DNA of 64,000 bases from Myxococcota bacterium (GTDB lineage Bacteria > Myxococcota_A > Bradymonadia > UBA7976 > UBA1532), in assembly GCA_018813065.1 (NCBI GenBank), contig JAHJCH010000171.1, forward strand, positions 871 to 64,870. The letters are read 5' to 3'. The translations under genes were made by a program, and so were the position numbers. The notes beneath the pieces were generated by a model. That model saw only the letters and a program-made list of their open reading frames with translations. It was not told the origin of the DNA and made no database searches. Below, piece by piece: positions 24,062 through 63,402 of the stretch (positions are counted from its first letter, which is position 1; every line of letters begins with the position of its first letter).

Positions 24062-24171
24062 CGGCCCTCACTTGTGGTGTGTTTACGCTGAAAGCCCGCG
24101 GATTATCCGAGGTGCGTCTATCTAACACATGGCGAGGTCTCTCGCTATTTTTTTTAACGGGTTCGCTCGGA

Positions 24172-26368: not shown

Positions 26369-26417
26369 GTCTCGCTCACGGTGATGATCTGCGCGCCAAG
26401 ATAGACCGCCTCGACGC

Positions 26418-27614
26418 TTAAAGCGAGCCCTCGGCGTCGCGCGCCTCCGCCCCAAAGGCCCGCTCCAGCCGCCGCAGCGCCTCCTCCAAGATCGGGCGAC
26501 CCATGCCGACGTTCATGCGCATAAAGCCCAGCCCCTCAGGGCCATATTGTTCGCCTGGGGTGAGCGCCAAGCCCGCCTCATGCAGCGCGCGGCGCTGGAT
26601 CTCGGCGGGAGGCAGCCCCAGTCCGCGCATATCGAGCCACAAGAGGTAGGTCGCCTCGGGCGGCGTCAGCGTGACGCCGGGGAGGCGGGCGCGCGTGAAG
26701 GCCGCCGCGCGCTGAATGTTGCCTCGGAGGTGGTCGATGAGCGCCTGATACCACGCCTCGCCCTCGCGGTAGGCCACCTCCAGGCTCACCAAGCCAAAGA
26801 GGTTGGGGCCGTGGAGGTACTGCGCCTCGATGATCCGCCCCAGCCGCGCTCGCAGCCCCGCGTCGGGGGTGATGGCGTAGGCCGCCATCAAGCCCGGCGT
26901 GTTGAAGGTCTTGCCCGGAGAGGAGAGCGTGACGCTGCGCGCCGCCAACTCGGGGCTGTGATGGGCCACTGGCGTGTGTGGGTGCTCGGCGAAGACCAGA
27001 TCGGCGTGGATCTCATCGCTGACGATGATCAGCTCGTGGGCTTGGGCGATCTCGGCGATGATGTCCAGCTCCGCCGCGCGCCAAACACGCCCCGTGGGGT
27101 TATGCGGGCTGCACAAGAGCAGCAGGCGCGTCGAGGGGGTCAACGCCGCCTCCAAGGCCCCGCGATCCAAGCGGTAGCGCCCCGCCTCCAGGCGCAGCGG
27201 CGCCCTCTGTAGGGTCCGACCATTGCGCGTGATCACGCCCGTGATGGGATCGTAGACCGGCGTAAACGTCACGACGCCCTCGCCGGGCCGCGTCAGGGCC
27301 TGCACGCACAGCGCGAGGCCCTGCACGACGTTGGGCGTCAGCGTGATCCAGTCGCGCGACACCGCCCAGCCGTGGCGCCGCCGCTGCCAGTCGATGATCG
27401 CCGCGTAGATGTCCTCATGGGCCAGCGTGTAGCCATAGATCGGGTGGGCCGCGCGGGCGATCAGCGCCTCGGTCAGCGCGGGCAGCGTCGGCAGGTCCAT
27501 GTCGGCGACCCACAGCGGCAGCGCGTCCTCGACGCCGAACTTGGCGGCGCGTAGATCGTACTTGACGCTGTGGCTGCCCCGCCGATCCACCGGCGCGTTG
27601 AAGTCAAAGCCCAC
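26418..27614 (-). CDS. class I/II aminotransferase, MalY/PatB-type C-S lyase (cystathionine beta-lyase-like)
   Basis: N-terminus MGFDFNAPVDRRGSHSVKYD typical of PatB/MalY. PLP-fold length 398 aa. SxxK-region consistent with the fold. Confidence 0.7.
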   Translation of the reverse strand: MGFDFNAPVDRRGSHSVKYDLRAAKFGVEDALPLWVADMDLPTLPALTEALIARAAHPIYGYTLAHEDIYAAIIDWQRRRHGWAVSRDWITLTPNVVQGLALCVQALTRPGEGVVTFTPVYDPITGVITRNGRTLQRAPLRLEAGRYRLDRGALEAALTPSTRLLLLCSPHNPTGRVWRAAELDIIAEIAQAHELIIVSDEIHADLVFAEHPHTPVAHHSPELAARSVTLSSPGKTFNTPGLMAAYAITPDAGLRARLGRIIEAQYLHGPNLFGLVSLEVAYREGEAWYQALIDHLRGNIQRAAAFTRARLPGVTLTPPEATYLLWLDMRGLGLPPAEIQRRALHEAGLALTPGEQYGPEGLGFMRMNVGMGRPILEEALRRLERAFGAEARDAEGSL

Positions 27615-38005: not shown

Positions 38006-38030
38006 CCCCGACGCTCAACGAAAACCACGC

Positions 38031-39219
38031 TCAACGAAAAGCGTCGAGGCCGCCAAAAGGCCCCAAGGCGCGATCAAAGACGCCCAGCGTAAAGGCGATG
38101 GCCAGCCCATAGTTGGTCATGGGCACGCCCGCCTCGGCGCAGCGCAGCTGGCGGGCGAGGACCGCCCTGCGGTTCCAGACGCAGCCGCCGCAGTGAACCA
38201 CCAAGGCGTAGGGGCTGAGGTCCTCGGGGAAGTCACGGCCGGACTTGACCTCGATCTCCAGCGCGCCGCCCACATACTGGCGCAGCCAGCGGGGGATCTT
38301 GACCCGCCCGATGTCCTCGGTGATGGGGTGATGTGTACACGCCTCGGCGATGAGCACCTGATCGCCGCTCTTGAGCTGATCGATCGCCAACGCGCCGCGC
38401 ACGAGGCCGCCCAGATCCCCCTTCATCCGCGCGAAGAGGACAGAGAAGGAGGTCATGGGGATCTCCGGCGGGGTGTCGGCGGCGACCTTGAGGAAGGCCT
38501 GAGAGTCGGTGACCACCAGCGCTGGCGGGGCCTTGAGGTTGGTCAGCGCGTGGCGCAGCTCGCGCTCCTTGGTGACGAGGCAGTAGGCGTCGCCGTCGAG
38601 CGCGTCGCGGATGGCCTGCACCTGCGGCATGATCAGGCGGCCCTTGGGCGCCTCCTTGTCGATGGGCGTCACCAGCACCACGCAGGCCCCCGGCGAGACC
38701 AGATCCGAGAGGACGGGCGGGGGGGTGAGCGCCGCCTCGGGGGCCAGCTCGATGAGCAACGCCCGCGTCGCGCCGATCCCCTCGCCCGTGCGCGTGGAGG
38801 TGATGGCGTGCTTGCGCTTGAGCGCCTCCCCCTCAGCGCGTTGGAGATCGGCCTTGTTGTAGATCGCCGCCCAGGGGGCGCCTTGGGCGTCCAGCGCGGC
38901 GGCGAGGCCCGCCTCAAAGGCGCCCCAAGCGCCGCCCTCGGTGACGATCAGCGCCACATCACAGCGCGCCAACGCCGCGCGTGTCCGCTCCACGCGCAGC
39001 GCGCCCAGCGCGCCCTCGTCGTCGATCCCCGCCGTGTCGATGAACAGCACGGGGCCGAGCGGGGCCAGCTCCATGGTCTTCTCGATCGGATCGGTGGTCG
39101 TGCCCGCCACGTCCGAGACGATGGCCACGTCTTGACGCGTCAGGGCGTTGAGCAACGAAGACTTGCCGACGTTGCGGCGGCCAAAGAGGCCGATATGAAG
39201 GCGCAGGGCCTTGGGCGCT

Positions 39220-39227
<8 letters not shown>
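38031..39227 (-). CDS. hydF: [FeFe]-hydrogenase maturation GTPase HydF
   Basis: P-loop GRRNVGKSSLLNAL. C-terminal CxH...HCxxC cluster motifs (EACTHH, VVHCGGC). 398 aa. Confidence 0.8.
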
Positions 39228-40630
<1,403 letters not shown>

Positions 40631-40638
<8 letters not shown>

Positions 40639-42040
40639 AGAGATCCCGCGCGCCGCCTTGGATGATCTGCGCCAGGCGCGCCTCGGCGGCCTCCCGTCCC
40701 GTCTTCATCAAGGCCAGCTCCGCTTGGATCAGCGCGTGACCCGCCGCCTTTGTGCGCGGCGTGGCGTAGTCTTCGAGGTACTCAGCCAAGGTAAAGAGGG
40801 CGTTGGGGCCGCAGAACCGCTTAATGAAGCCTGGCTGGGCGAAGGACATAAAGTGCTCGCCGACCCGGCCCAGGCGATAACAGGCCGTGCAGAAGCTGGG
40901 CAGGTAGCCATCCTCCAGCAGCTCCGCCATCACCTCATCGAGGGGGCGCGTGTCGCCCACCTCGAACTGCTCGCGCTCTAGGCGCTGTGCGCCCTCGGCG
41001 GTGTAGCCCCCGATCTCGATGCGCGTGCCCGCGTCGATCTGGGAGACGCCCAGGGCCATGACCTCGCGGCGGATCTCGGGCCGCTCTCGCGCCGTGAGGA
41101 TCAGCCCCGTGTAGGGCACGGCCAGGCGCAGCACGGCGACGAGGTGCTTGAAGTCCTCATCGGAGACGGCGTGCTCGAAGTGGCCATCGACGCCCGAGGC
41201 GCGCTGGATGCGCGGGAAGCTGATGGTGTGCGGCCCGACGCCCAGCGTGGTGTTGAGCACATCGGCGTGCTTGACCAGCGCCAGCGTCTCAAAGCGCCAA
41301 TCGTAGAGCCCAAAGAGCGCGCCGATGCCCACGTCATCGCAGCCGGATTGGATGGCGCGGGTGGCGCTGTCGAGCCGCCAGTGATAGTCCGACTTGGGCG
41401 TGTTGCCGGGGTGAACCTGGGCGTAGGTGGCGTGATGATAGGTCTCTTGAAAGACCTGGTAGGTGCCGATGCCCGCCTCGTGGACGCGGCGATAGCCCGC
41501 CTCATCCAGCGGCGCGGCGTTGATGTTGACGCGGCGGATCTCGCCGTTGCCCTCGCGGATCTGATAGACGCGCTGGACGGCCTCAGCGATGAACTCGGCG
41601 TCATAGCGCGGGTGCTCGCCGAAGACGAGGATGAGGCGCTTATGGCCGCCTCGGATCAGCGCCTTGACCTGGGCCTCAAGCTCATCGGGGTTGAGCGTGG
41701 CGCGCACGGCCTCCTTGTTGGAGCGGCGGAACGCGCAGTAATGGCAGTCGTTACGACAGAGGTTGCCGACGTAGAGCGGCGCGAAGAGGACGACGCGGTT
41801 GCCATAGACGGCGTCCTTGAGCGCCCGAGCGGCGGCGGCGACGCGCTGGCGCTGATGCGGGCTTGAGGCGGCGAGGAGGACGGCGGCCTCCTCCATCTTG
41901 AGGGGTGTCTTACTCGCCGCCCGCGCCAAGATCTCGTCGAGCCGCAGATCGGAGGGCTCTGGGAGGGCGCAGAGGGCGTGGATTTGATCCTCATTGATAA
42001 AATCGTGGGCGCTCGGGCTGAGCGCGCGGGGGAGCTTCAT
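40631..42040 (-). CDS. hydG: [FeFe]-hydrogenase maturase HydG (radical SAM tyrosine lyase)
   Basis: Radical-SAM CRNDCHYC (CX3CX2C) and C-terminal CTAC...C auxiliary-cluster motif. 469 aa. Confidence 0.8.
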
Positions 42041-43077
42041 CGTGCGTGACCTTTACCGAGGCCAACTCGGCGACCGAGCGCCTGGATGTTGGCCCTGATC
42101 TCCGCCTCGGTCTCCGCGCGCGCCACCTCAACCCGGCCTTTGGCGGGGTAGATCTCGTAGTCGCGGCGGTATTGGAGGGGGGTGATGTTGGGCATGACTA
42201 CGTTGGCGCCCCAGTGGAGCCCGTGAGCGCGCCCTTGACGGCGGTTTATTGTCGCGAGGGCGGTGGTGCTGGGGATGTGAGCGCGTGGGCGCATGTGCCG
42301 CGCGAGGGCCAACACCTTGAGGGTCATGGCCTCAGAGGCCGGGACCTGATCCACGGCGGCCTCAAAGGCGTGGGGATCGCGCCCCAAGGGCGTTTCGGGG
42401 TGGGCAACCCACGGCCCGAGGCCGATCATATGCAGCTCAAGCTCGCGTAAAATCAGGATATCTCGTACCAGGTCCGCGTACGTCTGCCCCGGCGCGCCGA
42501 CGAGCATCCCGCTGCCGATCTGATAGCCCATCGCCGCCATGGATCGCAGCTGCGCGAGGCGATCTTGGCCCTCGGGGTGGGCGGGATGGAGCCGATCGAA
42601 CAGGGCAGGACGGCTGGACTCGAAGCGCAGCAGGTAGCGATCGGCGCCCGCCTCGCGCCACACCCTCAAATCCGCGTCCGGGCGCTCCCCGAGGCTGAGC
42701 GTGATCGCCAAATCATGGCGCGCGCGCGTCGCCGCGATGAGATCACGGACCCACTCGACGTCGAGCGCGGGGTCTTCCCCGGCTTGGATCACCATCGTGC
42801 CGTAGCCGCGCCGCTCGATCTCCGCCGCGCAGGCCAAAATTTCGGCGTGGCTCATGCGATAACGGGTGATTCGACGCCCCGCGCGCAGGCCACAGTAGAG
42901 GCAAGCCCGCTTGCAGTGGTTGCTGATCTCGACGAGGCCGCGCAGATAGACGACGGGGCCGATCTCGCGCAGCAAGTGGGCCTCAGCGGAGGCGCGCAGG
43001 GCCTCCAGGCGGGGCGGCGCCTCCTCGCGCAGCCACGCCTCAACGGCGGCGGCGTCCAGCGTGGCGGGATCGATCAT
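42037..43077 (-). CDS. hydE: [FeFe]-hydrogenase maturase HydE (radical SAM)
   Basis: CKRACLYC radical-SAM motif near residue 55. 346 aa. Biotin-synthase-like. Confidence 0.8.
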   Translation of the reverse strand: MIDPATLDAAAVEAWLREEAPPRLEALRASAEAHLLREIGPVVYLRGLVEISNHCKRACLYCGLRAGRRITRYRMSHAEILACAAEIERRGYGTMVIQAGEDPALDVEWVRDLIAATRARHDLAITLSLGERPDADLRVWREAGADRYLLRFESSRPALFDRLHPAHPEGQDRLAQLRSMAAMGYQIGSGMLVGAPGQTYADLVRDILILRELELHMIGLGPWVAHPETPLGRDPHAFEAAVDQVPASEAMTLKVLALARHMRPRAHIPSTTALATINRRQGRAHGLHWGANVVMPNITPLQYRRDYEIYPAKGRVEVARAETEAEIRANIQALGRRVGLGKGHAR

Positions 43078-44198
43078 GCGGTGGCGCTCTTGAGCGTGAG
43101 GGTGAAGGCGCTGCCGACATCGGGGGCGCTCTCGACGCGCACGTCGCCGTCATAGAGCTGGGCGATCTTCTTAAGGATCGACAGGCCCAGGCCGCTGCCG
43201 TCGATGCCGCGCGTCTGTTGGGTCTTGATGCGCACGAACTCCCCAAAGAGCTTGGCGACCTCCTCGGGGCTCATCCCGATCCCCGTGTCCTTGACGGTGA
43301 GCGTGACGCCGCCCTCGACGGGCGCGATGTGGACATCGACGCGCCCCCCATCACGGTTGTACTTCACCGCGTTGGAGATCAGGTTGTTCAGCGCGATATC
43401 CAGCTCGCCGCGATCTGCCCGCAAGGGCACCGTGGCGGGGGCGTGGAGGTGGATCTCGATGCCCCTCGGGGTGGCCGTGGGCTTCATCGTCTCAATCGAC
43501 ATCTCCGCCACCTCGCGCAGATCCAGATCCGTGAGGGTGCGCTGCTTGCGCCCTGACTCCAGGCCGGTGAGATCGAGGAGATCGTAGATGAGCTTACGCA
43601 TCCCCGCGCTGCGGGTGAGCATACGCTCGACCAAGCGCAGGTAGGCGCTGAGATCATCGCCCAGCGTGCGATCTTGCAACAGGTTGAGGTGCCCCTCGAT
43701 GGCCGCCAGCGGGGCCTTCAGCTCATGGGCCAGCACGGAGATAAACTCAAAGCGCACTTGGCGGCGCTCGCGCTCCAAGCGCGCGGCGTGGCGGCGGGCG
43801 ATGAGGTGCTTGGTGGCCCGGCGCACCACCGCGCGGACCTCCTCGGGGGTGAAGGGCTTGGCCAGCACGTCATAGGCGCCGCGCTTGGTGGCCGTGATCG
43901 CGGTGGGGATCGTGGCGTAGCCGGTGATCATCACCACCAGCGGGTCCTCGGCGGGGTTGAGGGACTTCAACATCTCCAGCCCGGTCATCCCCGGCAGCTT
44001 GACGTCGAGGAGCATGAGATCCGTCCGCTCGGCGCCGAGGTGATCCAGCGCCACCTCGGCGCTGTCGGCCTCATGGGCTTGGAAGCTGAACTCGCCGTGC
44101 TCTGGGATCTCGACGCAGAAGCCGCGCAGCGCGCGCATCACCCCCCGCCGCATCCCCAGCTCATCATCTACGATCAAGATCCGCAGCGGCTCCATCAT
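43074..44198 (-). CDS. hybrid response-regulator/histidine kinase (REC - HisKA - HATPase)
   Basis: REC domain with phospho-acceptor in LMLLDVKLPG. H-box VLAHELKAPL. N-box/G-box NLISNAVKY and GIDGSGLGLSI. Confidence 0.75.
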   Translation of the reverse strand: MMEPLRILIVDDELGMRRGVMRALRGFCVEIPEHGEFSFQAHEADSAEVALDHLGAERTDLMLLDVKLPGMTGLEMLKSLNPAEDPLVVMITGYATIPTAITATKRGAYDVLAKPFTPEEVRAVVRRATKHLIARRHAARLERERRQVRFEFISVLAHELKAPLAAIEGHLNLLQDRTLGDDLSAYLRLVERMLTRSAGMRKLIYDLLDLTGLESGRKQRTLTDLDLREVAEMSIETMKPTATPRGIEIHLHAPATVPLRADRGELDIALNNLISNAVKYNRDGGRVDVHIAPVEGGVTLTVKDTGIGMSPEEVAKLFGEFVRIKTQQTRGIDGSGLGLSILKKIAQLYDGDVRVESAPDVGSAFTLTLKSATA

Positions 44199-44216
44199 CG
44201 CGCCTCCTCGCTGGCC

Positions 44217-44588
44217 TCAGCGTAAAACCTGGCTCAAGGCGCGCTCGATCTGCTCAAAACGCACAGGCTTATCCAAGATCAGATCGGCCTTGACCCAAGG
44301 GCCGCGTTCAAAGGTGAGGCCGGCCTCATGGGCGACGCCCGTGACCATGATCACGGGCACCGAGGGGTAGCGCGCCTTGATGCGCCGGGCCAGCACGAGG
44401 CCGTCGTCCATCTGCGCCATCATCAAGTCGATGATGGCCACGTCCGGCGCGCGCTGGGCCAAGCAGGCGTCGGCGGCCTCAAGGCCATCGGCGGCGCAGA
44501 CGCTGTAGCCCTTGGCCTTGAGCTGAAGCTCCATCTGGAGCAGGAAGTCTTCATCGTCATCGACCAGGAGGACGTGGGTGGGGTTCAT
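44217..44588 (-). CDS. stand-alone receiver (CheY-like REC) protein
   Basis: 123 aa. VLLVDDDEDF, AIIDLMM (acceptor Asp), IMVTG, KP motifs. Confidence 0.75.
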   Translation of the reverse strand: MNPTHVLLVDDDEDFLLQMELQLKAKGYSVCAADGLEAADACLAQRAPDVAIIDLMMAQMDDGLVLARRIKARYPSVPVIMVTGVAHEAGLTFERGPWVKADLILDKPVRFEQIERALSQVLR

Positions 44589-44597
44589 GGCTCTCTC

Positions 44598-46592
44598 TCA
44601 AGGATCGGTTGAAACAACGAGTCTGTACGGCGTGGGGAGATCGATCTTAAAGGTCGTGCCGGTCGGACCCTGGGCGGGATCGGCGTTGGAGCGCACGGAG
44701 ATCTGGCCGTGGTGCATCTTGACGATGCCGTAGCTCACCGAGAGCCCCAGGCCCGTGCCCTTACCCACCGGCTTGGTGGTGAAGAAGGGCTCAAAGATCT
44801 TCTTGCGGGTCTGCGGATCGATGCCCGAGCCGGTGTCCTCGATCTCAAAGATCAGCTCATCGTCTTCGCCGCGCGCCCGCAGGTAGAGGCCGCCGCCTTG
44901 GGGCATGGCGTCTACGGCGTTGCGGGCGAGGTTAACGAGCACCTGGAGGATCTGATCGCGATCCAGCTCCGCCTCCAGGCCAGCGGGGCAGTCGATAAAG
45001 GCGCGGATCTTGGGGTTGACCTCCAAGGAGAGCACCGTCGCCTCGAAGAGATCGCAGATCCCCGTCCAGCGACGCTCCACCTTCTTCTGTCGCGCGAAGT
45101 CGAGCAGCCCTGAGACGATCTTCTTACAGCGATCCGCCTGCTCGGCGATCATCACCAGGTCTTCACGCAGCGGCGTCTCCTCCTCAGCCTCATCCAGCAG
45201 CAGGTGGGCATACATCAGCACCACGCCGAGGGGATTGTTGACCTCATGGGCGATGCCCGCCGCCAGCTGCCCCATGCTCGCCAGCCGCTCCGAGTGCATC
45301 AGCGCCTCTTGCGTCTCGGCGAGGGCGGAGTTGGAGCGGGTCAGATCATCGACGGTCTTGTGGAGCTGATCGATGGTAAAGGGCAGGCACATCTCCGGCT
45401 CGGCGAGGCCCTTAAGGATCGCCAAGGCGTGCTCTCGGCAGGTGTCATAGCCGCAAGCGCCGCAGTTGAGCTCATCGCTGGGGCCGTGCTTGCCCATGCG
45501 GCCCAAGACCTTGATGACGTTGTCCTCGCTGTCCACCAAGATCCGCTGATCTTGCGCGATAAAGCGCTGGGTGAGGGGGATGTCGAGGCAGCCCTTGAGC
45601 TGATCGAGGGCCTCGGCGGTGTCTTGACAGACCTGGCGGGCGTACTTGCTCAGCAGCGCGCGGCGACGAAAGCGCGGCGCGCGCGTGGTCATGCCAGGCC
45701 CCATCAAGCAGCCGTTGCAGCAGAGGACGTCGAGCAGCCGCGCGTCAAGGCTGCCCTCCTCAAACTCGCGGATGGCCTCGACGAACTCGCCGCGCCCCTC
45801 AGCGGAGACGAGATCGCCCGAGAGGAGGTCTTGATCCAGCGCGGCGGCGCGCAGGAGGCCGCCGCTGAGGGGGAAGATGGTCCCCAAGCCCGAGCGCGGC
45901 GGATCAAAGGCCGAGGGGGGCGCGGCGTGGAGGTCGATCCCGCGCGCGTCGAGGGCGGCGCGCAGCTCTTTAAAGGTGATCGCCGCCTCGATCTCCCCCG
46001 ACTCGACGGCCTCGGCCTTTTTGGCGACGCATGGGCCGATAAACGCCACCCGCTGCGGGCGCGGATCGAGGCGCCGCGCCGCGCGCGCCATGGCGATCAT
46101 CGGAGACACGATCGGCGCCAGCGCGCCGATGAGATCCGGGTGGTAGTGGGTGACATAGGAGACGACGGAGGGGCAGGCCGTGGCGATATATCGCCCCTCT
46201 GGGTGCGCCATGATCAGATCACGATAAGCCACCGCCACCAGATCGGCGCCGAAGGCCACCTCCATCACCTTGTCAAAGCCCATCGCCCTCAACGCGCCGA
46301 CGATCTGCGTCGGTGAGGCGTCGCTGAACTCCGCCGGGAAGCTCGGCGCGATCATGGCGACCTTGAGATCAGGGCCGCTGAGCAGCGCGTCGAGGGCGGG
46401 CAGGCCGTCGATCACCTGCTTGGCGCCCTGGCTGCACACCTGCACGCAGTGGCCGCAGCCGATGCAGCGGGCGGTGATCACCTCGGCTTGGCCTCGGGCG
46501 ATGCGGATCGCCTTGGCGGGGCACTCGCGCACGCAGGTGTAGCAGACCCGGCAGCGGTCCTTGATCGTGGTGATGAGGGCGTAGGGGTCCAT
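44598..46592 (-). CDS. sensory [FeFe]-hydrogenase-like (HydS-type) H-cluster domain fused to histidine kinase
   Basis: Two 4Fe-4S ferredoxin motifs ([23 protein letters not shown]). H-domain motifs [11 protein letters not shown] (L2) and [12 protein letters not shown] (L3), with a degenerate L1 IATACPSVV. An extra 4-Cys motif CGACGYDTC...C. Then His[10 protein letters not shown] and HATPase [18 protein letters not shown]. Confidence 0.7.
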
Positions 46593-48307
46593 TAGCGCAG
46601 TATATCTCGGGGGGCGTAGTGGGTATGCAGCAGCGCGTGGCTGATCTCTCCGCCCGGCGCGCCCAGGTGCGCGGCGTAGAGCGCTTGGATCTGCGGGTTC
46701 TCATGGGCGGTGCGCAGCGGCGCGTCCTTGTCTACGGCGTAGAGGGCCGCCGCGCGGCGCTCGATGGCCTTGAGATCGAGCCCCGTTGGCTGCCCCCCCC
46801 CGTTAATGCAGCCGCCAGGGCAGCTCATGATCTCGATAAAGTGCAGATCATCTCGCCCCGCGTCCAGCTCCTCCAGGAGACGCCGCGCTTCCCCGAGGCT
46901 GCTGACCACGGCGACGCCCATTTGATGCTCGCCGACCTGGATTTGGGCCTCCTTGCGCAGCGCTTGGCCCCGCGCGGCCTTGAATATCTGGCCGGGCAGC
47001 GGCGCGCCAGCGATGATCTGGTGCGCGGTGCGCACCGCCGACTCCATTACGCCGCCCGAGGCGCCAAAAATCTTGCCCGCGCCGCTGCGCTCACCGAAGG
47101 GCATATCGGGTTCATCGCCGGGGAGCGTCGCCAGATCAAGGCCACGCATACGGATCAAATCGATCAGCTCACGGGTGGTCAGTACATAGTCGATGTCAGC
47201 GCGGCCATCGCGGCCCATCTCGGGGCGCTCCGCCTCAAACTTCTTGGCCGTGCAGGGCATCACCGCCACGCTGACGATGTCATCCGCGGCGATCCCCTCG
47301 GCGGGGGCGTAGATCGCCTTGATCACCGCCCCCAGCATCTGCTGCGGGCTCTTGCAGGTGGAGAGGTGCGCCAGGCGGTGGGGGTAGAACGTCTCGACGA
47401 ACTTGATCCACGCCGGGGAGCAGCTGGTCATCATCGGCAGGGCGCCGCCGGTGGTGACGCGGTGGACCAGCTCATGGGCCTCCTCCATGACCGTGAGGTC
47501 AGCGGAGTAGGCGGTGTCAAAGACGCGATCAAAGCCGAGGCGGCGCAGCGCCGTCGTCAACGCTGGCGCGCAGTCGCCCTTGACGTTGAAGGCCTCGCCG
47601 ATGGTGACGGAGACGGCCGGCGCGTGCTGGATCACCACCGTCTTTTGAGGATCGGCGAGGGCGGCCATGACCTGCTCGGCGTGGCTGTGCTCATGCAGCG
47701 CGCTGGTGGGGCAGACACGGACGCACTGGCCGCAGTAGACGCAGCTGGAGACGTTGAGCCCTTGCTCAAAGGCCGTCTCCACCCGCGCTTTGGCCCCACG
47801 CCCCACGAAGTCGATGGCCGAGACGCTCTGGATCTCCTCGCAGACCCGCACGCAGCGCCCACAGAGGATGCACTTGTCCGGCTCGCGGATCATGGCGGGG
47901 CTGGAGAGATCGAGGGGCTTGAACTCACGCGCGCCGTGGTAGCGGCGCTGGCGCACGCCCAGCTCAAAGGCGATGTCTTGGAGATCGCAGCTGTGGTTAC
48001 GCGGGCAGTAGAGGCAGTCATCGGGGTGATCGGCGAGCAGCAGCTCGACGATCGTCTTGCGGGCCTCCACCGCGCGCGGCGAGTGGGTCTGCACCCGCAT
48101 CCCCTCGCTGACCTGCAACGCGCAGCTGGGCGCCAAACGCTGCTGGCCCTCGATCTCGACGACGCAGAGGCGGCAGGCGCCCGTCGGGGTCATCCCTTCG
48201 AGGTGGCAGAGGGTGGGGACACGCACGCCCTCGGCCCGCAGCACGTTGAGCAGGTTGGCGGCGGGGGCCGCCTGGATGTCTCGGCCATTGATGTTGAGGT
48301 TGATCAT
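46592..48307 (-). CDS. hydA: [FeFe]-hydrogenase catalytic subunit HydA (group A, multi-cluster form)
   Basis: N-terminal 2Fe-2S domain (MINLNINGRD...CH), FeS4 domains (CILCGRCVRVC, CVYCGQCVRVCP). H-cluster motifs MTSCSPAW (L1 variant), MPCTAKKFE (L2), EIMSCPGGCINGGGQP (L3). Start at MINLNING; the upstream 103 codons of the track ORF are rejected. Confidence 0.8.
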   Translation of the reverse strand: MINLNINGRDIQAAPAANLLNVLRAEGVRVPTLCHLEGMTPTGACRLCVVEIEGQQRLAPSCALQVSEGMRVQTHSPRAVEARKTIVELLLADHPDDCLYCPRNHSCDLQDIAFELGVRQRRYHGAREFKPLDLSSPAMIREPDKCILCGRCVRVCEEIQSVSAIDFVGRGAKARVETAFEQGLNVSSCVYCGQCVRVCPTSALHEHSHAEQVMAALADPQKTVVIQHAPAVSVTIGEAFNVKGDCAPALTTALRRLGFDRVFDTAYSADLTVMEEAHELVHRVTTGGALPMMTSCSPAWIKFVETFYPHRLAHLSTCKSPQQMLGAVIKAIYAPAEGIAADDIVSVAVMPCTAKKFEAERPEMGRDGRADIDYVLTTRELIDLIRMRGLDLATLPGDEPDMPFGERSGAGKIFGASGGVMESAVRTAHQIIAGAPLPGQIFKAARGQALRKEAQIQVGEHQMGVAVVSSLGEARRLLEELDAGRDDLHFIEIMSCPGGCINGGGQPTGLDLKAIERRAAALYAVDKDAPLRTAHENPQIQALYAAHLGAPGGEISHALLHTHYAPRDILR

Positions 48308-48320
48308 CTCGTCGTCCCTC

Positions 48321-50285
48321 TCAGCGCGCGACCGCCACCGCGTCGAGGCGGCAGGCGTCCAGGCAGGCGCCGCAGCCAATGCAGCGCTCCTCGATGATGT
48401 AGTGGGGGTTCTTGCGGCTGCCGAGGATGGCGTCGGTGGGGCAGGCCTTCTTGCACAGCGTGCAGCCCACGCAGGCCTCCTCGATGATGCTGTAGCGCTT
48501 GAGGGCCTCGCAGGCCCCAGCGGGGCAGCGGCGCTCAAAGACGTGGGCCTCATACTCATCGCGGAAGAAGCGCAGCGTGCTGAGCACCGGGCTGGGCGCG
48601 GACTGGCCGAGACCACAGAGGCTGGTGTCGGCGATCACACCCGCCAGCTTCTCAAGCTGGGCGACGCCCTGCATCCGGTGCAGCGCGTCGAAGCCCCCTT
48701 CTTGGCCCCGACGGCGGGTGATCTGCTCCAAAATCTCCAGCATTCGGCGCGTGCCCTCACGGCAGGGGATGCACTTGCCGCAGCTCTCGCGCTGGATGAA
48801 GTCCATAAAGAACTTGGCAACATCCACCATGCAGGTGTCTTCGTCCATGACGACGAGGCCGCCCGATCCCATCATGGCCCCCACGGTCTTGAGCGACTCG
48901 TAGTCCACCTCAATGTCGAGGTGCTGCGTGGGGATGCAGCCGCCCGAGGGGCCGCCGATCTGCGCCGCCTTGAAGGCCTTGCCGTTGGGGCAGCCGCCGC
49001 CGATCTCCATGACGATCTGGCGCACGGTCGTGCCCATCTCCACCTCGACGAGCCCGGTGTGCTTGACCTTGCCCGAGAGCGCGAAGACCTTGGTGCCCTT
49101 GCTGCTGGCGGTGCCCAATGCGGCCATCTCTGCGGCGCGATCAGGCAGGATGTCGGGGAGGTTGGCCAGCGTCTCGACGTTGTTGATGATCGTGGGGCAG
49201 TTGAAGAGCCCACGCGAGGCCGGGAAGGGGGGCCGCGGCCTCGGCATCCCTCGCTTGCCCTCGATGCTGTGGATCAGGGCCGTCTCCTCGCCACAGACGA
49301 AGGCGCCAGCGCCCTCCTTGACGTAGACGTCGAGGTCAAAGCCCGAGTCCATGATGTTGGCGCCGAGCAGGCCCCAGGCCCGCGCTTGGTCTAAGGCGCG
49401 CCGCAGCCGCGCGATGGCCAGCGGGTACTCGGCGCGGATGTAGACGTACGCCTTGGTGGCGCCGATGGCGTAGGCGGCGAGGGCCATGCCCTCGATGAGC
49501 CGGTAGGGATCGCCCTCGATGACGGCGCGGTCCATAAAGGCGCCCGGATCACCCTCGTCGGCGTTGCAGATGAGGTACTTCTGATCGGCGCCCTCTTTGA
49601 GCGCGAAGCGCCACTTGACGCCCGTAGGAAACCCACCGCCGCCGCGCCCACGAAGCCCGCTCTCGATGACCGCCTCGCAGGCCTCCTCCGGGGTGCGCTG
49701 GTGGATCGTGTCGGCCAAGGCGCGAAAGCCCCCATGGGCGATATAGGCGTGGATGTCCACCGGATCGATGATCCCGCAGCGGCTGAGCACGCGGCGATGT
49801 TGGGCGCGGAAGAAGGGGTGGACGCTGATGGGCAGCGCGTCGCGGCGCGGCGGCGTGGAGGGCGGCGCGTCGTATTGACCCAACACCTCACCGTAGAGCT
49901 GATCGCGATCCAGCAGGGCGTCGAGGATCGGCTTGACCTTGTCGTGGGTGACGTGGGCGAAGGAGACGCGTGGCTGGCCCGGGCGCTGCGCGTCCAGGAT
50001 CGGCTCGGCGGAGCAGAGGCCGACGCAGCCGACCTCGATGATGTCCGCCTCGATCCCCCGCGCCTTGATCTCACGCTTGACGGCCTTGAGCGTCTCGCCC
50101 GCGCCCGCGCCCAAGCCACAGGTGCCCGCGCCGATGTAGAGGGTGAGGCGCTCGACGGCCTCGCGCTTCAAGGCCACGCCTTCGCCGCTGTACCAGCTCT
50201 CGCGCGCTTGGGCGTCGCTGCGGGGGCCAAACAGGCGCCAACTCAGCGTGCCCTCCATGGGGTGCAGCTGTGCTCGCTCACTCAT
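48321..50285 (-). CDS. hydB: hydrogenase NADH-binding flavoprotein subunit HydB (NuoF-like, with thioredoxin-like 2Fe-2S and 2x[4Fe-4S] domains)
   Basis: FMN/NADH site GAGAFVCGEETALIHSIEGKRG. SLBB and 4Fe-4S (ESCGKCIPCREG). C-terminal ferredoxin CVGCTLCKKACP / CIGCGACLDAC. 654 aa. Confidence 0.8.
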   Translation of the reverse strand: MSERAQLHPMEGTLSWRLFGPRSDAQARESWYSGEGVALKREAVERLTLYIGAGTCGLGAGAGETLKAVKREIKARGIEADIIEVGCVGLCSAEPILDAQRPGQPRVSFAHVTHDKVKPILDALLDRDQLYGEVLGQYDAPPSTPPRRDALPISVHPFFRAQHRRVLSRCGIIDPVDIHAYIAHGGFRALADTIHQRTPEEACEAVIESGLRGRGGGGFPTGVKWRFALKEGADQKYLICNADEGDPGAFMDRAVIEGDPYRLIEGMALAAYAIGATKAYVYIRAEYPLAIARLRRALDQARAWGLLGANIMDSGFDLDVYVKEGAGAFVCGEETALIHSIEGKRGMPRPRPPFPASRGLFNCPTIINNVETLANLPDILPDRAAEMAALGTASSKGTKVFALSGKVKHTGLVEVEMGTTVRQIVMEIGGGCPNGKAFKAAQIGGPSGGCIPTQHLDIEVDYESLKTVGAMMGSGGLVVMDEDTCMVDVAKFFMDFIQRESCGKCIPCREGTRRMLEILEQITRRRGQEGGFDALHRMQGVAQLEKLAGVIADTSLCGLGQSAPSPVLSTLRFFRDEYEAHVFERRCPAGACEALKRYSIIEEACVGCTLCKKACPTDAILGSRKNPHYIIEERCIGCGACLDACRLDAVAVAR

Positions 50286-50751
50286 CTCCCACCTCCATCT
50301 CTCTGGCGCGCGCCAAGAGCGCAGCGGCGTCCTCCGCCTTGACGTCGCCGAAGAAGGCGCCGTCGATGGCGACCACCGGGGCGAGGCCGCAGGCGCCGAT
50401 GCAGGCGACGACCTCTAAGCTGTACTCGCCGTCCTTGGAGGTCTGATCAGGCTCGATCTTGAGCGCCCTTTGGATCCCCGACAGCACCGCCGCCGAGCCC
50501 TTGACGTGGCAGGCCGTGCCTCGGCAGACCTGGACGTGGTGGCGCCCCGGCGGGGTCAGCCGGAACTGGTTGTAGAAGGTCGCCACCCCATAGATCTTGC
50601 TGGTCGGCAGCTTGAGGTGCTGGCCTACGGCGATGACCGCCTCCGTAGAGAGGTAGCCCTCCTTGGCCTGCACGGCTTGTAAGATGGGGATGAGCGCGTC
50701 ACGCCGCGCTTGTGGGTAGCCTTCAAGGACAGCTTGAACCGCGTCGGTCAT
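50278..50751 (-). CDS. hydC: hydrogenase 2Fe-2S subunit HydC (NuoE-like)
   Basis: CRGTACHVKG...CIGACGLAP thioredoxin-like [2Fe-2S] motifs. 157 aa. Confidence 0.75.
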   Translation of the reverse strand: MTDAVQAVLEGYPQARRDALIPILQAVQAKEGYLSTEAVIAVGQHLKLPTSKIYGVATFYNQFRLTPPGRHHVQVCRGTACHVKGSAAVLSGIQRALKIEPDQTSKDGEYSLEVVACIGACGLAPVVAIDGAFFGDVKAEDAAALLARAREMEVGDE

Positions 50752-51392
50752 GAGCGCTGCTCCTGCGTGGCGGCGAAGAAGGCCGCCTTCTCAAGAGACA
50801 TGGTGATGTCTACGTCTTCAACATGAATGGATGGGGGGAGATCGAGGTGTGACGGGGCGAAGTTAAGCACCGCGCGGATGCCCGCCTTGATCAGCCTCGG
50901 CCCCAGCGTGGCGACCGCCTCGCCAGGCAGCGTCAGGATCACGATCCGCGCCGCCTCCCTCTCCAAGATGGCCTCAAGCTCATCAAGGGGATAGCAGCGG
51001 CAGCCATGGATCACGCGCCCGATCTTGTGTGGATCGATGTCAAAGGCGGCGACGAGCTGGAGCGTGGGGCGGCGCCCCTGGAAGTAGGACAGCAGCGCGC
51101 GCCCCAGGTTACCGACGCCGATGAGGGCGACGGCTTGGGGCTCGGCGGGCGCCAGTTGCGCGTTGATCGCGCGCAGCAAGGCCTGGACTTCATAGCCCCG
51201 CGCGCCCCCCGCGACCTCAAGGTGCATCAAATCGCGGCGCGCTTGGGAGGCCGTCACCCCCGAGCGGCGCGCCAGATCGCTGGAGAGGATGTAGCGCTGC
51301 TCCGTGCGCGACAGCGCATCAAGGAGCCTGCGGTAGAGGCTCCAGCGACCCACTGTTTTTTGGGACACGTCAGGGTGCATGGCGCGTAACAT
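50748..51392 (-). CDS. rex: redox-sensing transcriptional repressor Rex
   Basis: Winged-helix KTVGRWSLYRRLL and Rossmann ALIGVGNLGRALL. Start taken at MLRAMHPD; the track ORF extends to 51428 through the operator. Confidence 0.75.
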   Translation of the reverse strand: MLRAMHPDVSQKTVGRWSLYRRLLDALSRTEQRYILSSDLARRSGVTASQARRDLMHLEVAGGARGYEVQALLRAINAQLAPAEPQAVALIGVGNLGRALLSYFQGRRPTLQLVAAFDIDPHKIGRVIHGCRCYPLDELEAILEREAARIVILTLPGEAVATLGPRLIKAGIRAVLNFAPSHLDLPPSIHVEDVDITMSLEKAAFFAATQEQRS

Positions 51393-51417: not shown

Positions 51418-51435
51418 CTGTGATTCAATTCACAG
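51418..51435 (-). promoter_or_regulatory. Rex operator (cTGTGAttcaatTCACAg) immediately upstream of rex-hyd operon
   Basis: Near-perfect match to the Rex box consensus TTGTGAA-N4-TTCACAA, about 26 bp upstream of the proposed rex start on the transcribed side. Confidence 0.55.
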
Positions 51436-56656: not shown

Positions 56657-56682
56657 GAACCGCCCTTGTGGCGGTTTTTTTA
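56657..56682 (+). terminator. rho-independent terminator (GAACCGCC-cttgt-GGCGGTT-TTTTTT), bidirectional between convergent genes
   Basis: Perfect 7-bp GC-rich stem, 5-nt loop, then a 7-T run. It sits 25 bp after the OMP stop codon. The T-run overlaps the stop of the convergent GGDEF gene. Confidence 0.6.
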
Positions 56683-57294
56683 TGCCCGACACGCCCCCAC
56701 GCGATCTCCGCCGCGCTGCTTGGCATTATTGAGCGCGATGGCCGCGCGGCGCAGCGCCCCGCTGAGCGGCTCGCCGTTCAAGATCTCCGTCACCCCCAGC
56801 GAGACAGTGCGCGGCGCCAAGCCCCAGACACCACGACTTGTGCGATGGCGTACCTCATCACAGAGGCGCTGGGCCACGCGCACGGCGCTGTTGAGGCGCA
56901 CATCATGAAGGAGGATCGCCAACTCGGCTGGAGAGACGCGGGCGATCAAGTCCTGCTCATAGAGGCTGCACTGGACGCGGTGCGTGATGTAGGCGATGGC
57001 CCGCTCTAAGCCGTGATCGTCGTCGAGCTGGAGCGCGAGCAAGGATCGTGGGGCGCGCGTCGCCTCCCGCTGGGCGGCCACCACCCGCTCAAAGCCCGCG
57101 CGGTTGAGCACCCCCGTCAGCGCGTCAAAGGCCCGCGTGGCGTCTAAACCCGAAGGCCACCTCAGGCGCGCGCTCATCGCCGTCAAGGCGCGCCACGCCT
57201 CAAAGGTCGCTTCGCCGTGGGGCGCCTTGAGGCTGGGCGTCGCCTCGATCTCCGCCTTGGTGCTCAGCATTTGACCCTCCTCCTCTGCGTCCAT
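56680..57294 (-). CDS. degenerate GGDEF-domain protein
   Basis: LTGVLNRAGFERVV (GGDEF N-terminal signature), but the GG(D/E)EF position reads SPAEL. Likely non-catalytic. Confidence 0.5.
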   Translation of the reverse strand: MDAEEEGQMLSTKAEIEATPSLKAPHGEATFEAWRALTAMSARLRWPSGLDATRAFDALTGVLNRAGFERVVAAQREATRAPRSLLALQLDDDHGLERAIAYITHRVQCSLYEQDLIARVSPAELAILLHDVRLNSAVRVAQRLCDEVRHRTSRGVWGLAPRTVSLGVTEILNGEPLSGALRRAAIALNNAKQRGGDRVGACRA

Positions 57295-57451: not shown

Positions 57452-57982
57452 TCAGCGAAAGCTAAACTGAATTTGGTAGTCGCAGAGGTAGAAGACGTCG
57501 CCGTCCTCGATGCGCTTGTGCTCTACCCGGTTGCCGTCGAACTCGATCCCGTTGGTGCTGCCGAGGTCTTTGATGAAGTAGCTGCCGTTGCGGTAGACCA
57601 CCGCGCAGTGTTTGCGCGAGATGTTGCCATCTCGGATCGTGAGATCCGTGACCTGGCTGCCTCGGCCGATGATGTACTTCTCTTTGTCGATCTTGTGCCG
57701 CTGGCCGTTGAACATCAGATAGATGCTGGGCCTGGGCGGGGCGGCGGCGGGGGCCTCGGGTAAGGGCGGCGGCCGATGAGGTGACTCCACCTTCAACTCA
57801 GGCTGCGCCGTGTTCGTCGCCGCCATGGAGTAGTTGCGGCTGCGCGCATAGTGCCGCATGGACTCATTGATGAGGTAATCCATGGAGCAGCCGAGATCGC
57901 GTCGCATCACCTCGAAGAGCTCCCAGAGATAGTCACGGCAATAGAAACTGCGCAACGTCTTGCGGTTGTGATCTGCGGTCAT
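57452..57982 (-). CDS. FHA-domain protein
   Basis: YIIGRGSQVTDLTIRDGNISRKHCAVV...GSTNGIEFDGNRV classic FHA motifs at the C-terminus. 176 aa. Confidence 0.7.
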   Translation of the reverse strand: MTADHNRKTLRSFYCRDYLWELFEVMRRDLGCSMDYLINESMRHYARSRNYSMAATNTAQPELKVESPHRPPPLPEAPAAAPPRPSIYLMFNGQRHKIDKEKYIIGRGSQVTDLTIRDGNISRKHCAVVYRNGSYFIKDLGSTNGIEFDGNRVEHKRIEDGDVFYLCDYQIQFSFR

Positions 57983-61746: not shown

Positions 61747-63402
61747 TCACTCGTTGCCGTAGGTCAAGGCCTCACGCACCGCGCGCAGCAGCGTTGAGCG
61801 GGTGTAGGGCTTTTGGAGGTAGCAAGCAGGGCCGCCATCGCGCAGGCCCGCTAAGGCCTCCTCGCGGTCATAGCCGCTGGAGAGGATCACGGGCAGCGCG
61901 GGGCGTTGGGCGTGGACTCGCTTAAAGACCTCGATGCCGTTGAGCCCAGGCATGGTCAGATCGGAGATGACCAAGGAGAGCTGATCCTTGAGCTGCTCAA
62001 AGAGGGCCAAGCCCTCAAAGCCGTCTCGGGCGACGTGGATCTCAAAGCCGAGCGGGCGCAGCGCCTTGGACAACACCGTACGCACCACCGGCTCATCGTC
62101 GATGATCAAGGCTGCGCCCTCGCCATGGATCACCGCGGGCTCAGCCTGAGGGTGCGGCGTCATCGTCGGAGCCGCCGCGTCGCTGAGGGGCAGATAGACG
62201 CGCAAGCGGGTGCCCTGCCCCGCCTCGCTCTCCACCACCAAGAAGCCCTGATGACCTCGGACGAAGCCCAAGACCATCGCCAGCCCCAGCCCGCGCCCGG
62301 TGGCCTTGCTGGTGTAGAAGGGATCAAACATCCGCGCGCGCGCTTGAGGCGTCAAGCCGGGGCCTTGATCTTGAACCTCCAGCAAGGCGTAAGAGCCAAG
62401 ATGCCCTTGCGTGCTGGGGTGGCGCGTCTCCAAGCAGGCCTCATCCACCTCCACGCGGCGCGCCCGCAGGGTGACCTGCGCTTGGCCGTGACTGGCCTCC
62501 ACCGCGTTCTTGACGAGGTGAAGCGTGGCCTCATGGAGCTGAGCGAGGTCGAGGTTGACGGGCAGCGGCGCCGCGCTGAGATCCCAGCTCAAGCGCTCAA
62601 GCGGCGCCAGGGCCTGGAGGCGCGGGGCGAGCTGACGCAGCGCGGCGGGGAGGTTGAGGATCTCGCGCTGTAGGCGCGCCCGGCCAGCGTAGGCCAACAT
62701 CTGCGCGGCCAGATCCGCCGCTCGCTGTGCCGCGCTCAAGATCAGCTCAACGTCCTGGCGCAGCTCGGAGCCAGGCGCCAAGCTCTCCATGAGGAGGCTG
62801 GCGTGACCTTGAACGCCGACGAGCAAGTTATTGAAACCATGGGCGATGCCGCCCGCCATCAGGCCCAGGCTCTCCAGCTTATGCGCTTGGTTGAGGCGCG
62901 CTTGTAGGGCCTCGCGCGCCGCGCGCTCCTGCTCCCATACCGTGACATCGGTACAGGTTCCGATAATCCGCGCTCCGGGCGTATCACGCGCCACCATGCG
63001 ACCGCGCCCTAAGATCCAGAGCGTCGAGCCCGACGGGCGGTTGACCCGAAAGACGCTGTGATAGGTGGGCGTCTCACCGCGCACATGGGCCATCAGCTGC
63101 GCCTGCACCCTGTCGATGTCCTCTGGGTGAATGCGGCCAAAGACCTCATCCCCGGAGGGGGACGGGGCCGAGGGTGAAAAGCCAAATAGCTCGGCGCTGC
63201 GCGCACATAAGCGCGTCTCATTCGAGGAGGGCAGCCACTCCCAGATGCCATCAGAGACCGCGTCGAGGGCTAAGCGAAGCTGCGCGTCTGAGGCCAACGG
63301 TTCAAGGCGGGGGGGGTGATAAGGTCGCATCTCGATTGCCCGATCGATGATCTCAAAGCGAAGAACACGCGGCGCAGGGCGAGGCCGCGTGGGCGCCACC
63401 AT
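61747..63402 (-). CDS. hybrid sensor kinase (PAS - HisKA - HATPase - REC)
   Basis: PAS-like N-terminus. H-box IAHGFNNLL. HATPase GRGLGLAMV. C-terminal REC ALIIDDEPVV...LVISDLTMPG. Confidence 0.75.
   Translation of the reverse strand: MVAPTRPRPAPRVLRFEIIDRAIEMRPYHPPRLEPLASDAQLRLALDAVSDGIWEWLPSSNETRLCARSAELFGFSPSAPSPSGDEVFGRIHPEDIDRVQAQLMAHVRGETPTYHSVFRVNRPSGSTLWILGRGRMVARDTPGARIIGTCTDVTVWEQERAAREALQARLNQAHKLESLGLMAGGIAHGFNNLLVGVQGHASLLMESLAPGSELRQDVELILSAAQRAADLAAQMLAYAGRARLQREILNLPAALRQLAPRLQALAPLERLSWDLSAAPLPVNLDLAQLHEATLHLVKNAVEASHGQAQVTLRARRVEVDEACLETRHPSTQGHLGSYALLEVQDQGPGLTPQARARMFDPFYTSKATGRGLGLAMVLGFVRGHQGFLVVESEAGQGTRLRVYLPLSDAAAPTMTPHPQAEPAVIHGEGAALIIDDEPVVRTVLSKALRPLGFEIHVARDGFEGLALFEQLKDQLSLVISDLTMPGLNGIEVFKRVHAQRPALPVILSSGYDREEALAGLRDGGPACYLQKPYTRSTLLRAVREALTYGNE

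Follow-up and report, generated by a model that had tools for sequence, protein, structure and literature searches.

Fusion of a sensory-type [FeFe]-hydrogenase domain and a histidine kinase within the hyd operon of a Myxococcota bacterium

Gene organization of the hyd locus

The stretch of DNA analyzed here, 64 kb of contig JAHJCH010000171.1 from a Myxococcota metagenome-assembled genome (MAG), has a GC content of ~0.65-0.70 and is referred to as the window. Eleven open reading frames (ORFs) on its minus strand run from 51392 to 38031 in the order rex-hydC-hydB-hydA-hydS/HK-REC-REC/HK-hydE-hydG-aspA-hydF (Table 1). Between the genes of the trimeric group A [FeFe] hydrogenase HydABC and those of the H-cluster maturases lies a module of three genes, which is the subject of this work. 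The first, hydS-HK, encodes a predicted [FeFe]-hydrogenase domain (H-domain) of sensory type fused to a histidine kinase (HK). It is followed by a single-domain receiver (REC) and by a hybrid of receiver and histidine kinase (REC-HK).

Neighboring genes of this cluster either overlap by 1-8 nt or are separated by gaps of at most 18 nt. The outer junctions of the module are overlaps (TAATG for hydA/hydS-HK and ATGA for REC-HK/hydE). A first-pass annotation made from the sequence alone had placed overlaps between the genes of the module, but the inner junctions turned out to be spacers of 9 nt and 18 nt with GAG-rich sequence resembling a ribosome-binding site. When the minus strand was scanned from 51700 to 37600, terminator-like hairpins were found solely at the 3′ end of hydF, where they overlap the last hydF codons. 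At the other end, the palindrome TGTGAATTGAATCACA lies upstream of rex and is the sole match to the Rex operator pattern in the entire window. The same pattern was matched exactly in 18 out of 80 related loci, nearly always no more than tens of bases from the rex start and mostly a few tens upstream of it. For rex itself, the ORF list gives a TTG at 51428 as start; we prefer the ATG at 51392, since this start agrees with the length typical of the family and does not run into the operator. Taken together, the tight junctions, the terminator-like sites after hydF only and the Rex palindrome point to a single operon, which is predicted to be Rex-regulated as it both encodes a Rex protein and carries a putative Rex operator upstream. 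A scan of the operon region for the sigma-70 promoter consensus returned no match, this consensus being uninformative for a Myxococcota genome, and scans of the window against Rfam and for tRNAs were likewise without matches.

Table 1 Features of the hyd operon and of the HydS-HK protein (positions of the window; aa, residues of HydS-HK).
Feature	Position	Strand	Basis
Rex operator-like palindrome TGTGAATTGAATCACA	51419..51434	-	lies 27 nt upstream of ATG 51392, the likely rex start
rex, redox (NADH/NAD+)-sensing repressor	50748..51392	-	Pfam Put_DNA-bind_N + CoA_binding; NF003995 Rex, 170.6 bits (cut-off 126)
hydC, NuoE-like [2Fe-2S] subunit	50278..50751	-	PF01257, E 1e-48
hydB, NuoF-like FMN/NADH subunit with C-terminal 2x[4Fe-4S]	48321..50285	-	Pfam Complex1_51K, NADH_4Fe-4S, Fer4
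hydA, catalytic group A [FeFe] hydrogenase, HydABC type	46592..48316	-	Fe_hyd_lg_C, 283.7 bits; Fe_hyd_SSU; NF040763, 761.7 bits
hydS-HK, sensory-type [FeFe]-hydrogenase domain + histidine kinase, 664 aa	44598..46592	-	Pfam, CpI alignment, orthologue alignment, AF2/Foldseek
HydS-HK: 2x[4Fe-4S] ferredoxin-like domain, aa 10-57 (Cys 14, 17, 20, 24, 43, 46, 49, 53)	46422..46565	-	Pfam Fer4 dicluster
HydS-HK: H-domain, aa 78-299	45696..46361	-	Fe_hyd_lg_C, E 4e-41
HydS-HK: accessory cluster Cx2Cx4Cx16C (C377, C380, C385, C402), PF04060 FeS aa 375-404	45381..45470	-	Pfam + sequence reading
HydS-HK: HisKA aa 440-502 (phospho-acceptor H449 in AHEVNNPL) + HATPase_c aa 544-654	44631..45275	-	Pfam, 54.3 and 85.5 bits
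Single-domain receiver (REC), 123 aa	44217..44588	-	Response_reg, E 5e-19
REC-HK, Response_reg + HisKA + HATPase_c, 374 aa	43074..44198	-	Pfam
hydE maturase	42037..43077	-	TIGR03956, 287.7 bits (cut-off 254.6)
hydG maturase	40631..42040	-	TIGR03955, 480.3 bits
aspA, aspartate ammonia-lyase-like gene between hydG and hydF	39220..40638	-	Pfam; NF008909, 593.6 bits
hydF maturase GTPase, final operon gene	38031..39227	-	TIGR03918, 531 bits
Terminator-like hairpins	38027..38097	-	3′ end of hydF

Domain architecture and fold of HydS-HK

From the N- to the C-terminus, HydS-HK consists of a ferredoxin-like domain, the H-domain, an accessory iron-sulfur cluster domain and a histidine kinase core. The Fe_hyd_lg_C profile scored 141.7 bits against a gathering score of 22.1, with profile positions 4-245 of 245 covered. 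No PAS family was detected by Pfam at E ≤ 0.01, and the unassigned stretch before the dimerization and histidine phosphotransfer (DHp) helix comprises ~35 residues, which is too short for such a domain. The Pfam annotation thus agrees with the earlier description of an H-domain fused directly to a histidine kinase without PAS, and the sequence motifs quoted for this gene at the time are all present. An NCBI entry from a Myxococcota bacterium MAG that is identical to HydS-HK (100%) is named merely ‘4Fe-4S dicluster domain-containing protein’.

An AlphaFold2 (AF2) model of HydS-HK reached a mean predicted local distance difference test score of 83.7, with values above 90 over the H-domain (residues 60-240). 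Searching this model with Foldseek retrieved [FeFe] hydrogenase structures at E ~1e-18 over ~430-460 alignment columns, among them CbA5H with an E-value of 9e-19 and DdHydAB with a TM-score of up to 0.68 (target-normalised), while the C-terminus resembled the ZraS kinase core. By its predicted structure, the N-terminal part has the hydrogenase fold. No group C or D hydrogenase was found among the PDB sequence matches of HydS-HK.

The H-cluster site and the sensory signature

The active site was mapped from HMMER alignments of HydS-HK with the hydrogenase CpI and with HydA subunits taken from solved structures of HydABC complexes; conservation was read from an alignment of 74 full-length orthologues taken from species-representative genomes. 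All four H-cluster ligands are in place, with C140, C188 and C292 aligning with the [4Fe-4S]H ligands C300, C355 and C499 of CpI, and C295 with the bridging cysteine C503. Absence of these cysteines would have marked a Narf-like or plain ferredoxin domain. K191 (CpI K358) and E194 (CpI E361) are retained as well. The L1 motif ATACPS, which had been called degenerate, therefore has to be read differently, as its C140 corresponds to the ligand C300 and solely the proton-relay cysteine C299 is lost (A139). The residues of the proton pathway are likewise missing, with Y123, A159 and A129 occupying the positions of E279, S319 and R286, and two methionines of CpI, M353 and M497, are replaced by G186 and L290.

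Across the 74 orthologues the four H-cluster cysteines, K358, E361, P324, the eight ferredoxin cysteines, the four C-terminal cysteines and H449 are invariant, and the N, G1 and G2 boxes of the kinase are kept in 73-74 of them. Such invariance argues against a vestigial or Narf-like H-domain and equally against a dead kinase. The substitutions follow a pattern, too. Glycine stands at the M353 position in every orthologue, the C299 position is taken by T, S, A, P or N and never by cysteine, and the E279 and S319 positions are Tyr in 66/74 and Ala in 62/74, respectively.

Loss of C299 together with the proton-pathway residues is the published signature of the putative sensory enzymes of groups C and D (PMC8163306). 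In addition, the C-terminal four-cysteine motif, correctly recognized in the first-pass annotation as typical of HydS, is covered by PF04060, and its spacing C377-x2-C380-x4-C385-x16-C402 exactly matches the Cx2Cx4Cx16C motif of the M2e and M2f sensory enzymes (PMC8163306). With its ligands kept and its proton pathway lost, the N-terminal half is best described, from its residues, as a predicted genuine H-cluster domain that resembles the sensory HydS type. HydS-HK has the features of sensory HydS proteins in general, i.e., the lost proton pathway and the combination of N-terminal 2x[4Fe-4S] and C-terminal Cx2Cx4Cx16C. It does not fall into group C M2f (TmHydS-type), as it lacks the C-terminal PAS domain, for which the stretch from residue 404 to the DHp helix offers no space, nor into group D M2e (TamHydS-type), as the M353 position is Gly rather than Ser or Thr and a kinase core follows the cluster.

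Kinase cores and receivers of the module

The kinase core of HydS-HK matched FixL-type cores at E 1e-31 and was closest by profile to AtoS (179.6 bits), ZraS and NtrB. It contains H449, N554/N558, D586-x-G588-x-G590 and G612/G614/G616; the H-box and the N, G1 and G2 boxes are all kept, so that the kinase, as already noted in the first-pass annotation, is complete and, judging by these residues, probably catalytically competent. In the single REC, the residues D10, D11, T83 and K107 and the phospho-acceptor D54 are preserved (33 orthologues). For REC-HK, the residues D11, D12, D65, T92, K114, H158 and N276, together with the boxes G1 and G2, are kept in 61-62 out of 62 orthologues, whose F box is kept in 59. 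Its kinase core is PhoR/PnpS-like and belongs to a HisKA subfamily different from that of HydS-HK.

These genes had been interpreted as a multi-step phosphorelay. Domain profile searches revealed no HPt or Spo0B-like domain in HydS-HK, REC or REC-HK, and the second histidine, H158, lies within a full kinase with a HATPase_c domain of its own. For these two reasons the module does not form a canonical His-Asp-His-Asp phosphorelay of the ArcB, BvgS or Spo0 type. Two complete kinases and two receivers look like a kinase-to-kinase cascade or a branched circuit instead.

Pairing of kinases and receivers was addressed by covariation, computed as mutual information with average product correction between the DHp and receiver interface columns of 50 loci. 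All four pairings lay above the shuffled controls with z-scores of 5.7-11.3, differing little from one another and without control for phylogeny. Within these limits, the kinase of HydS-HK scored highest with the receiver of REC-HK, and the kinase of REC-HK scored higher with the single REC than with its own receiver.

Distribution and gene neighborhood

At least 74 other genomes, belonging to more than 12 phyla, encode the same fusion. Among the matches listed, 120 clusters (90% identity) each show 56-60% identity to HydS-HK at a coverage of at least 96% and an identical Pfam architecture; the named ones comprise Planctomycetota, Phycisphaerae, Sedimentisphaerales, Latescibacteria and Eisenbacteria. 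A scan with one genome per species yielded at least 590 relatives, some of which may be kinase-only matches, and 80 of these, each matching nearly the whole query, were retained as loci L001-L080. They include Myxococcota, Planctomycetota, Hydrogenedentota, Desulfobacterota, Bdellovibrionota, Acidobacteriota, Actinomycetota, Verrucomicrobiota, Fibrobacterota, Bacteroidota, Ignavibacteriota, Elusimicrobiota, Melainabacteria, Spirochaetota, Chloroflexota, Clostridia and KSB1.

Gene neighborhoods were compared by ORF calling and phmmer searches with the proteins of the window, counting in each case the loci with enough flank to judge. Immediately upstream of hydS-HK lies hydA in 53/69 loci; REC-HK is found downstream in 60/69, and a single REC adjoins the gene in 55/69, which bears out the earlier assignment of both as partner genes. 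The linkage of these genes defines the three-gene module as a conserved cassette attached to hydCBA. Rex is encoded upstream in 23/58 loci. The first-pass annotation had also placed the module between hydCBA and the maturases and expected it to be made together with the enzyme. This agrees with the predicted co-transcription in the operon of the window but does not hold as a general rule, since a maturase gene occurs within 6 kb downstream in just 12/50 loci; only certain lineages have the module placed between hydCBA and hydEGF. Four loci from Hydrogenedentota and Elusimicrobiota (L005, L009, L030 and L078) share 49-56% identity over the full length and the gene order of the window.

Some loci carry additional hydrogenase genes. 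In ten loci from Ignavibacteriota, Bacteroidota and Thermoleophilia (L021, L022, L026, L046, L047, L050, L060, L061, L066 and L067), a second hydrogenase cluster follows ~2-10 kb downstream of hydS-HK in the order single REC, HydC′, short HydB′ (~400 aa), HydA′ (~640 aa) and a PilS-like histidine kinase with six transmembrane segments. REC-HK of these lineages has an extra PAS domain (REC-PAS-HisKA-HATPase_c, ~490 aa). Single-domain receivers recur beside hydrogenase operons without a DNA-binding output. One Bacteroidales locus contains a second, divergently oriented HydS-like gene of 619 aa upstream of hydC (L059:3183-5042, minus strand), which encodes Fer4, H-domain and FeS motif without a kinase.

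Relation to known systems

Two published surveys have described the same fusion. In a 2020 genome survey of Elusimicrobia, it is located beside a trimeric group A hydrogenase and Rex and is related to proteins of Ignavibacterium album and Caldithrix abyssi (bioRxiv 10.1101/765248). In Hydrogenedentota, the name ‘BfuT’ was given in 2024 to a sensory hydrogenase of group C3 that includes a histidine kinase domain and is encoded downstream of bfuA; it was also reported from Caldithrix abyssi and some Bacteroidota. The Hydrogenedentota equivalents were assigned to HydDB group C3 with WP_006928132.1 as best hit (PMC11406978). The same study reports two bfuT genes in some Bacteroidota, with which the second HydS-like gene of the Bacteroidales locus agrees. 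HydS-HK resembles these fusions in its domain order, in its place directly downstream of hydA of a trimeric HydABC cluster and in the nearby Rex, and it differs in stemming from a Myxococcota MAG and in having its module sandwiched between hydCBA and hydE-hydG-aspA-hydF. The function considered here has already been proposed in print for the same fusion (bioRxiv 10.1101/765248; PMC11406978). We found no description of the conserved REC and REC-HK partners in the parts of either source that were searched. In summary, the fusion is not new but widespread, catalogued (HydDB group C; ‘BfuT’) and biochemically uncharacterized. The statement of the first-pass annotation that no characterized system of this architecture was known to it accordingly stands with respect to biochemistry and falls with respect to novelty.

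Among the characterized proteins, HydS of Thermotoga maritima (TmHydS; group C, M2f) shares with HydS-HK the N-terminal 2x[4Fe-4S], the H-cluster ligands, the loss of C299, the exchange of M353 for Gly, the Cx2Cx4Cx16C motif and the genetic linkage to a group A hydrogenase (PMC8163306). However, TmHydS ends in a PAS domain without a kinase, whereas in HydS-HK HisKA and HATPase_c directly follow the cluster domain, and the M497 position is Ser in TmHydS and Leu in HydS-HK. HydS of Thermoanaerobacter mathranii (TamHydS; group D, M2e) is similar to HydS-HK in the lack of a PAS domain, the accessory clusters and the Leu at the M497 position, and it is adjoined by a gene that encodes a histidine-kinase-like ATPase (PMC8163306). 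It differs in being unfused, in the neighboring AraC-type regulator and in the Ser at the M353 position, a hallmark of M2e, which is Gly in HydS-HK.

HydDB divides the putative sensory [FeFe] hydrogenases of group C into C1 (‘histidine kinase-linked’), C2 (‘chemotactic’) and C3 (‘phosphatase-linked’) (PMC5037454). Signaling of a sensory [FeFe] hydrogenase via a histidine kinase is in this sense an already named class, C1, although the kinase there is usually encoded by a neighboring gene and the fused forms were placed in C3 (PMC11406978). A functional parallel is provided by the [NiFe] system HoxBC-HoxJ-HoxA (HupUV-HupT-HupR; HydDB [NiFe] group 2b), in which a histidine kinase, and through it the expression of hydrogenase, is controlled by a slow hydrogenase that binds H2 (PMC5037454). 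However, that sensor is unrelated in fold and in metal site, and it is a protein separate from the kinase, to which it is linked via a PAS-like domain of HoxJ. Furthermore, the output of that system is a known NtrC-type DNA-binding regulator, and none is encoded near HydS-HK. Cytoplasmic cofactor-sensing kinases of the FixL, NtrB, AtoS and ZraS kind also possess a HisKA core with a sensor feeding the DHp domain through a helix, but their inputs are haem-PAS, GAF or periplasmic domains and not a hydrogenase domain.

A proposed H2-sensing mechanism and its alternatives

Starting from what is established here, namely the architecture, the conserved ligands and catalytic residues, the fold, the organization of the operon, the cross-phylum synteny and the Rex box, we consider it probable, at roughly two chances in three, that HydS-HK is a cytoplasmic sensor kinase with a sensory-type [FeFe]-hydrogenase input that signals H2 to REC-HK and/or the single REC. 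HydE, HydG and HydF of the same operon would install the [2Fe] subcluster. By analogy to TmHydS and TamHydS, binding or oxidation of H2 at a slow H-cluster devoid of a proton pathway may then alter the state of the cluster. This change could reach the DHp helices by way of the C-terminal cluster domain and the helix 403-424, thereby switching the autophosphorylation of H449 or the balance of kinase and phosphatase activity. As suggested by anatomy and synteny, the phosphoryl group might be passed on to D65 of REC-HK, to D54 of the single REC or to both; in the former case it would gate the second kinase, which is PhoR-like (H158), and in the latter the single receiver would serve as terminal effector or as phosphate sink. 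The cassette encodes no DNA-binding regulator as target, and the output would lie outside of it or proceed by protein-protein interaction. The HydABC operon would in this way harbor two sensors, with Rex for the substrate side (NADH/NAD+) and HydS-HK for the product side (H2).

Several observations weigh against this interpretation. Neither an output domain in the operon, as the first-pass annotation had remarked for the module, nor a DNA-binding response regulator in the window, including the 43 ORFs outside the operon, was detected by Pfam. Likewise, no recurrent neighbor family emerged from the 80 loci when the 489 unassigned ORFs were clustered, the largest family spanning 5 loci, and the covariation scores from 50 loci barely separate the four pairings of kinases and receivers. 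Our literature search yielded no biochemical characterization of any kinase-fused form and no characterized H2-sensing kinase of the [FeFe] type. For no [FeFe] HydS has H2-dependent signaling been shown, with interaction partners still unidentified according to a 2026 study of TamHydS, and the C-terminal cluster of TamHydS was not reduced by 1 atm H2 (PMC13104023). The latter renders a simple redox relay via the C-terminal cluster unlikely and a conformational change likelier. Finally, the Hydrogenedentota study regards the protein as possibly belonging to the hydrogenase complex, as its subunit ‘T’ (PMC11406978).

An NtrC-type output gained no support from a scan of the window for sigma-54 promoters (TGGCAC-N5-TTGCW, at most 2 mismatches), which found 11 matches against 29.9 expected and none that was promoter-like at the 5′ end of the operon. 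The lone match inside the operon, at 46421, is on the plus strand, i.e., the non-coding strand.

Instead of H2, the H-domain could sense redox state or electron flux in general (the ferredoxin/NADH pool, O2 or CO) through its ferredoxin clusters, perhaps docked onto HydABC as the ‘T’ subunit with the kinase reporting the state of the enzyme. The invariant N-terminal 2x[4Fe-4S], the usual route of electron entry and exit (PMC13104023), would fit this explanation, as would the position of hydS-HK nearly always directly after hydA, to which it appears translationally coupled in the window, the naming as a BfuT subunit (PMC11406978) and Rex in the same operon with redox sensing as a theme. Yet the residues needed for a [2Fe] subsite are invariant across phyla (the bridging C503, K358, P324, the A230-P231-S232 motif and E361), which is more than a plain Fe-S redox sensor would need. 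The maturases are predicted to be co-transcribed in the window, and both a bound H-cluster and reactivity with H2 are documented for the characterized relatives TmHydS and TamHydS (PMC8163306). We rate a general redox sensor as unlikely.

In a variant of the H2-sensing scheme, HydS-HK, REC-HK and the single REC would form a self-contained H2-responsive circuit, in which phosphorylated REC directly gates the bifurcating HydABC, or Rex. In none of ~70 loci does the cassette include a transcription-factor output, and it accompanies hydCBA in different phyla. We regard this scenario as quite doubtful; if true, it would amount to a post-translational feedback of H2 on the enzyme that produces it, and it would also be the first direct proof of an [FeFe]-hydrogenase domain as H2 sensor.

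Even less weight can be given to a Narf-like or vestigial domain holding [4Fe-4S] clusters only, whose kinase would respond to cluster integrity, O2 or iron. In its favor, the TSCCPxW consensus is not fully kept in L1, M353 and M497 have given way to other residues, and motifs P1-P3 are described as hardly findable in the group C1 sequences of the Hydrogenedentota study (PMC11406978). Nevertheless, substitutions of M353, M497 and C299 are likewise present in TmHydS and TamHydS, which assemble H-clusters (PMC8163306). The complete conservation of the four cysteine ligands, K358 and E361 and the match of the fold to holo-hydrogenases over the ~430-460 aligned columns also make this improbable. 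That HydS-HK is chiefly a low-activity catalytic hydrogenase with two-component genes fused and linked by chance is very improbable, as TmHydS and TamHydS do retain measurable H2 turnover (PMC8163306) but the proton pathway is absent here, a high-activity HydABC is encoded immediately upstream, and at least 74 genomes spread over more than 12 phyla maintain the fusion with intact H-box and ATP-binding boxes.

The group C and group D [FeFe] hydrogenases have been called ‘sensory’ for more than ten years. An H2-dependent kinase assay on members of this family would put H2 sensing to a direct test, because the fused form brings its own read-out (H449) and its likely first partners are encoded by the next two genes. 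New in the present analysis are the residue map, REC-HK and REC as conserved partners, and an operon combining a substrate-side (Rex) with a predicted product-side (HydS-HK) sensor. Synthetic H2 biosensors would also gain a compact component from a working [FeFe] switch from H2 to phosphorylation.

Further observations in the operon and the window

The product of hydA matches HydA1 of T. kivui (PDB 8a6t) at E 2e-161, and its motifs read TSCSPAW (P1), MPCTAKKFE (P2) and EIMSCPGGC (P3). P1 of HydA has a serine in place of the [4Fe-4S]H ligand C300 of CpI. Among the 56 hydA genes directly upstream of hydS-HK, 36 encode TSCSP and 15 TSCCP. This serine is not new, as HydA1 of A. woodii in the solved HydABC structure 7q4v reads TSCSPGW, and it has been remarked on already (PMC11406978).

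The junctions of the aspA-like gene overlap with both hydG and hydF, and the gene has the same placement in eight related loci (L007, L010, L022, L026, L054, L069, L071 and L075). Speculatively, it may play a role in H-cluster maturation, e.g., as a nitrogen donor.

Other signaling genes of the window are a PAS-HisKA-HATPase_c-REC hybrid kinase (61747-63402), a GGDEF protein (56680-57294), an FHA-domain protein (57452-57982) and a PP2C phosphatase (5926-6696), all on the minus strand, as well as two Ser/Thr kinases. The hybrid kinase, GGDEF, FHA and PP2C genes show no evident link to the hyd operon.

The two Ser/Thr kinase genes are found at 24172-25173 and 25163-26455. Beside the former, two ORFs of 595 aa and 140 aa without Pfam match lie in a low-GC island at ~21300-25200 (GC 0.50-0.52 compared to ~0.65-0.70 in the flanks), which may have been acquired horizontally.

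At 11388-14656 on the plus strand, a GatE-like gene (GatB_N catalytic domain, 628 aa) adjoins a GatD-like gene (GatD_N and asparaginase, 460 aa), a pair corresponding to the archaeal-type Glu-tRNA(Gln) amidotransferase in a Myxococcota MAG.

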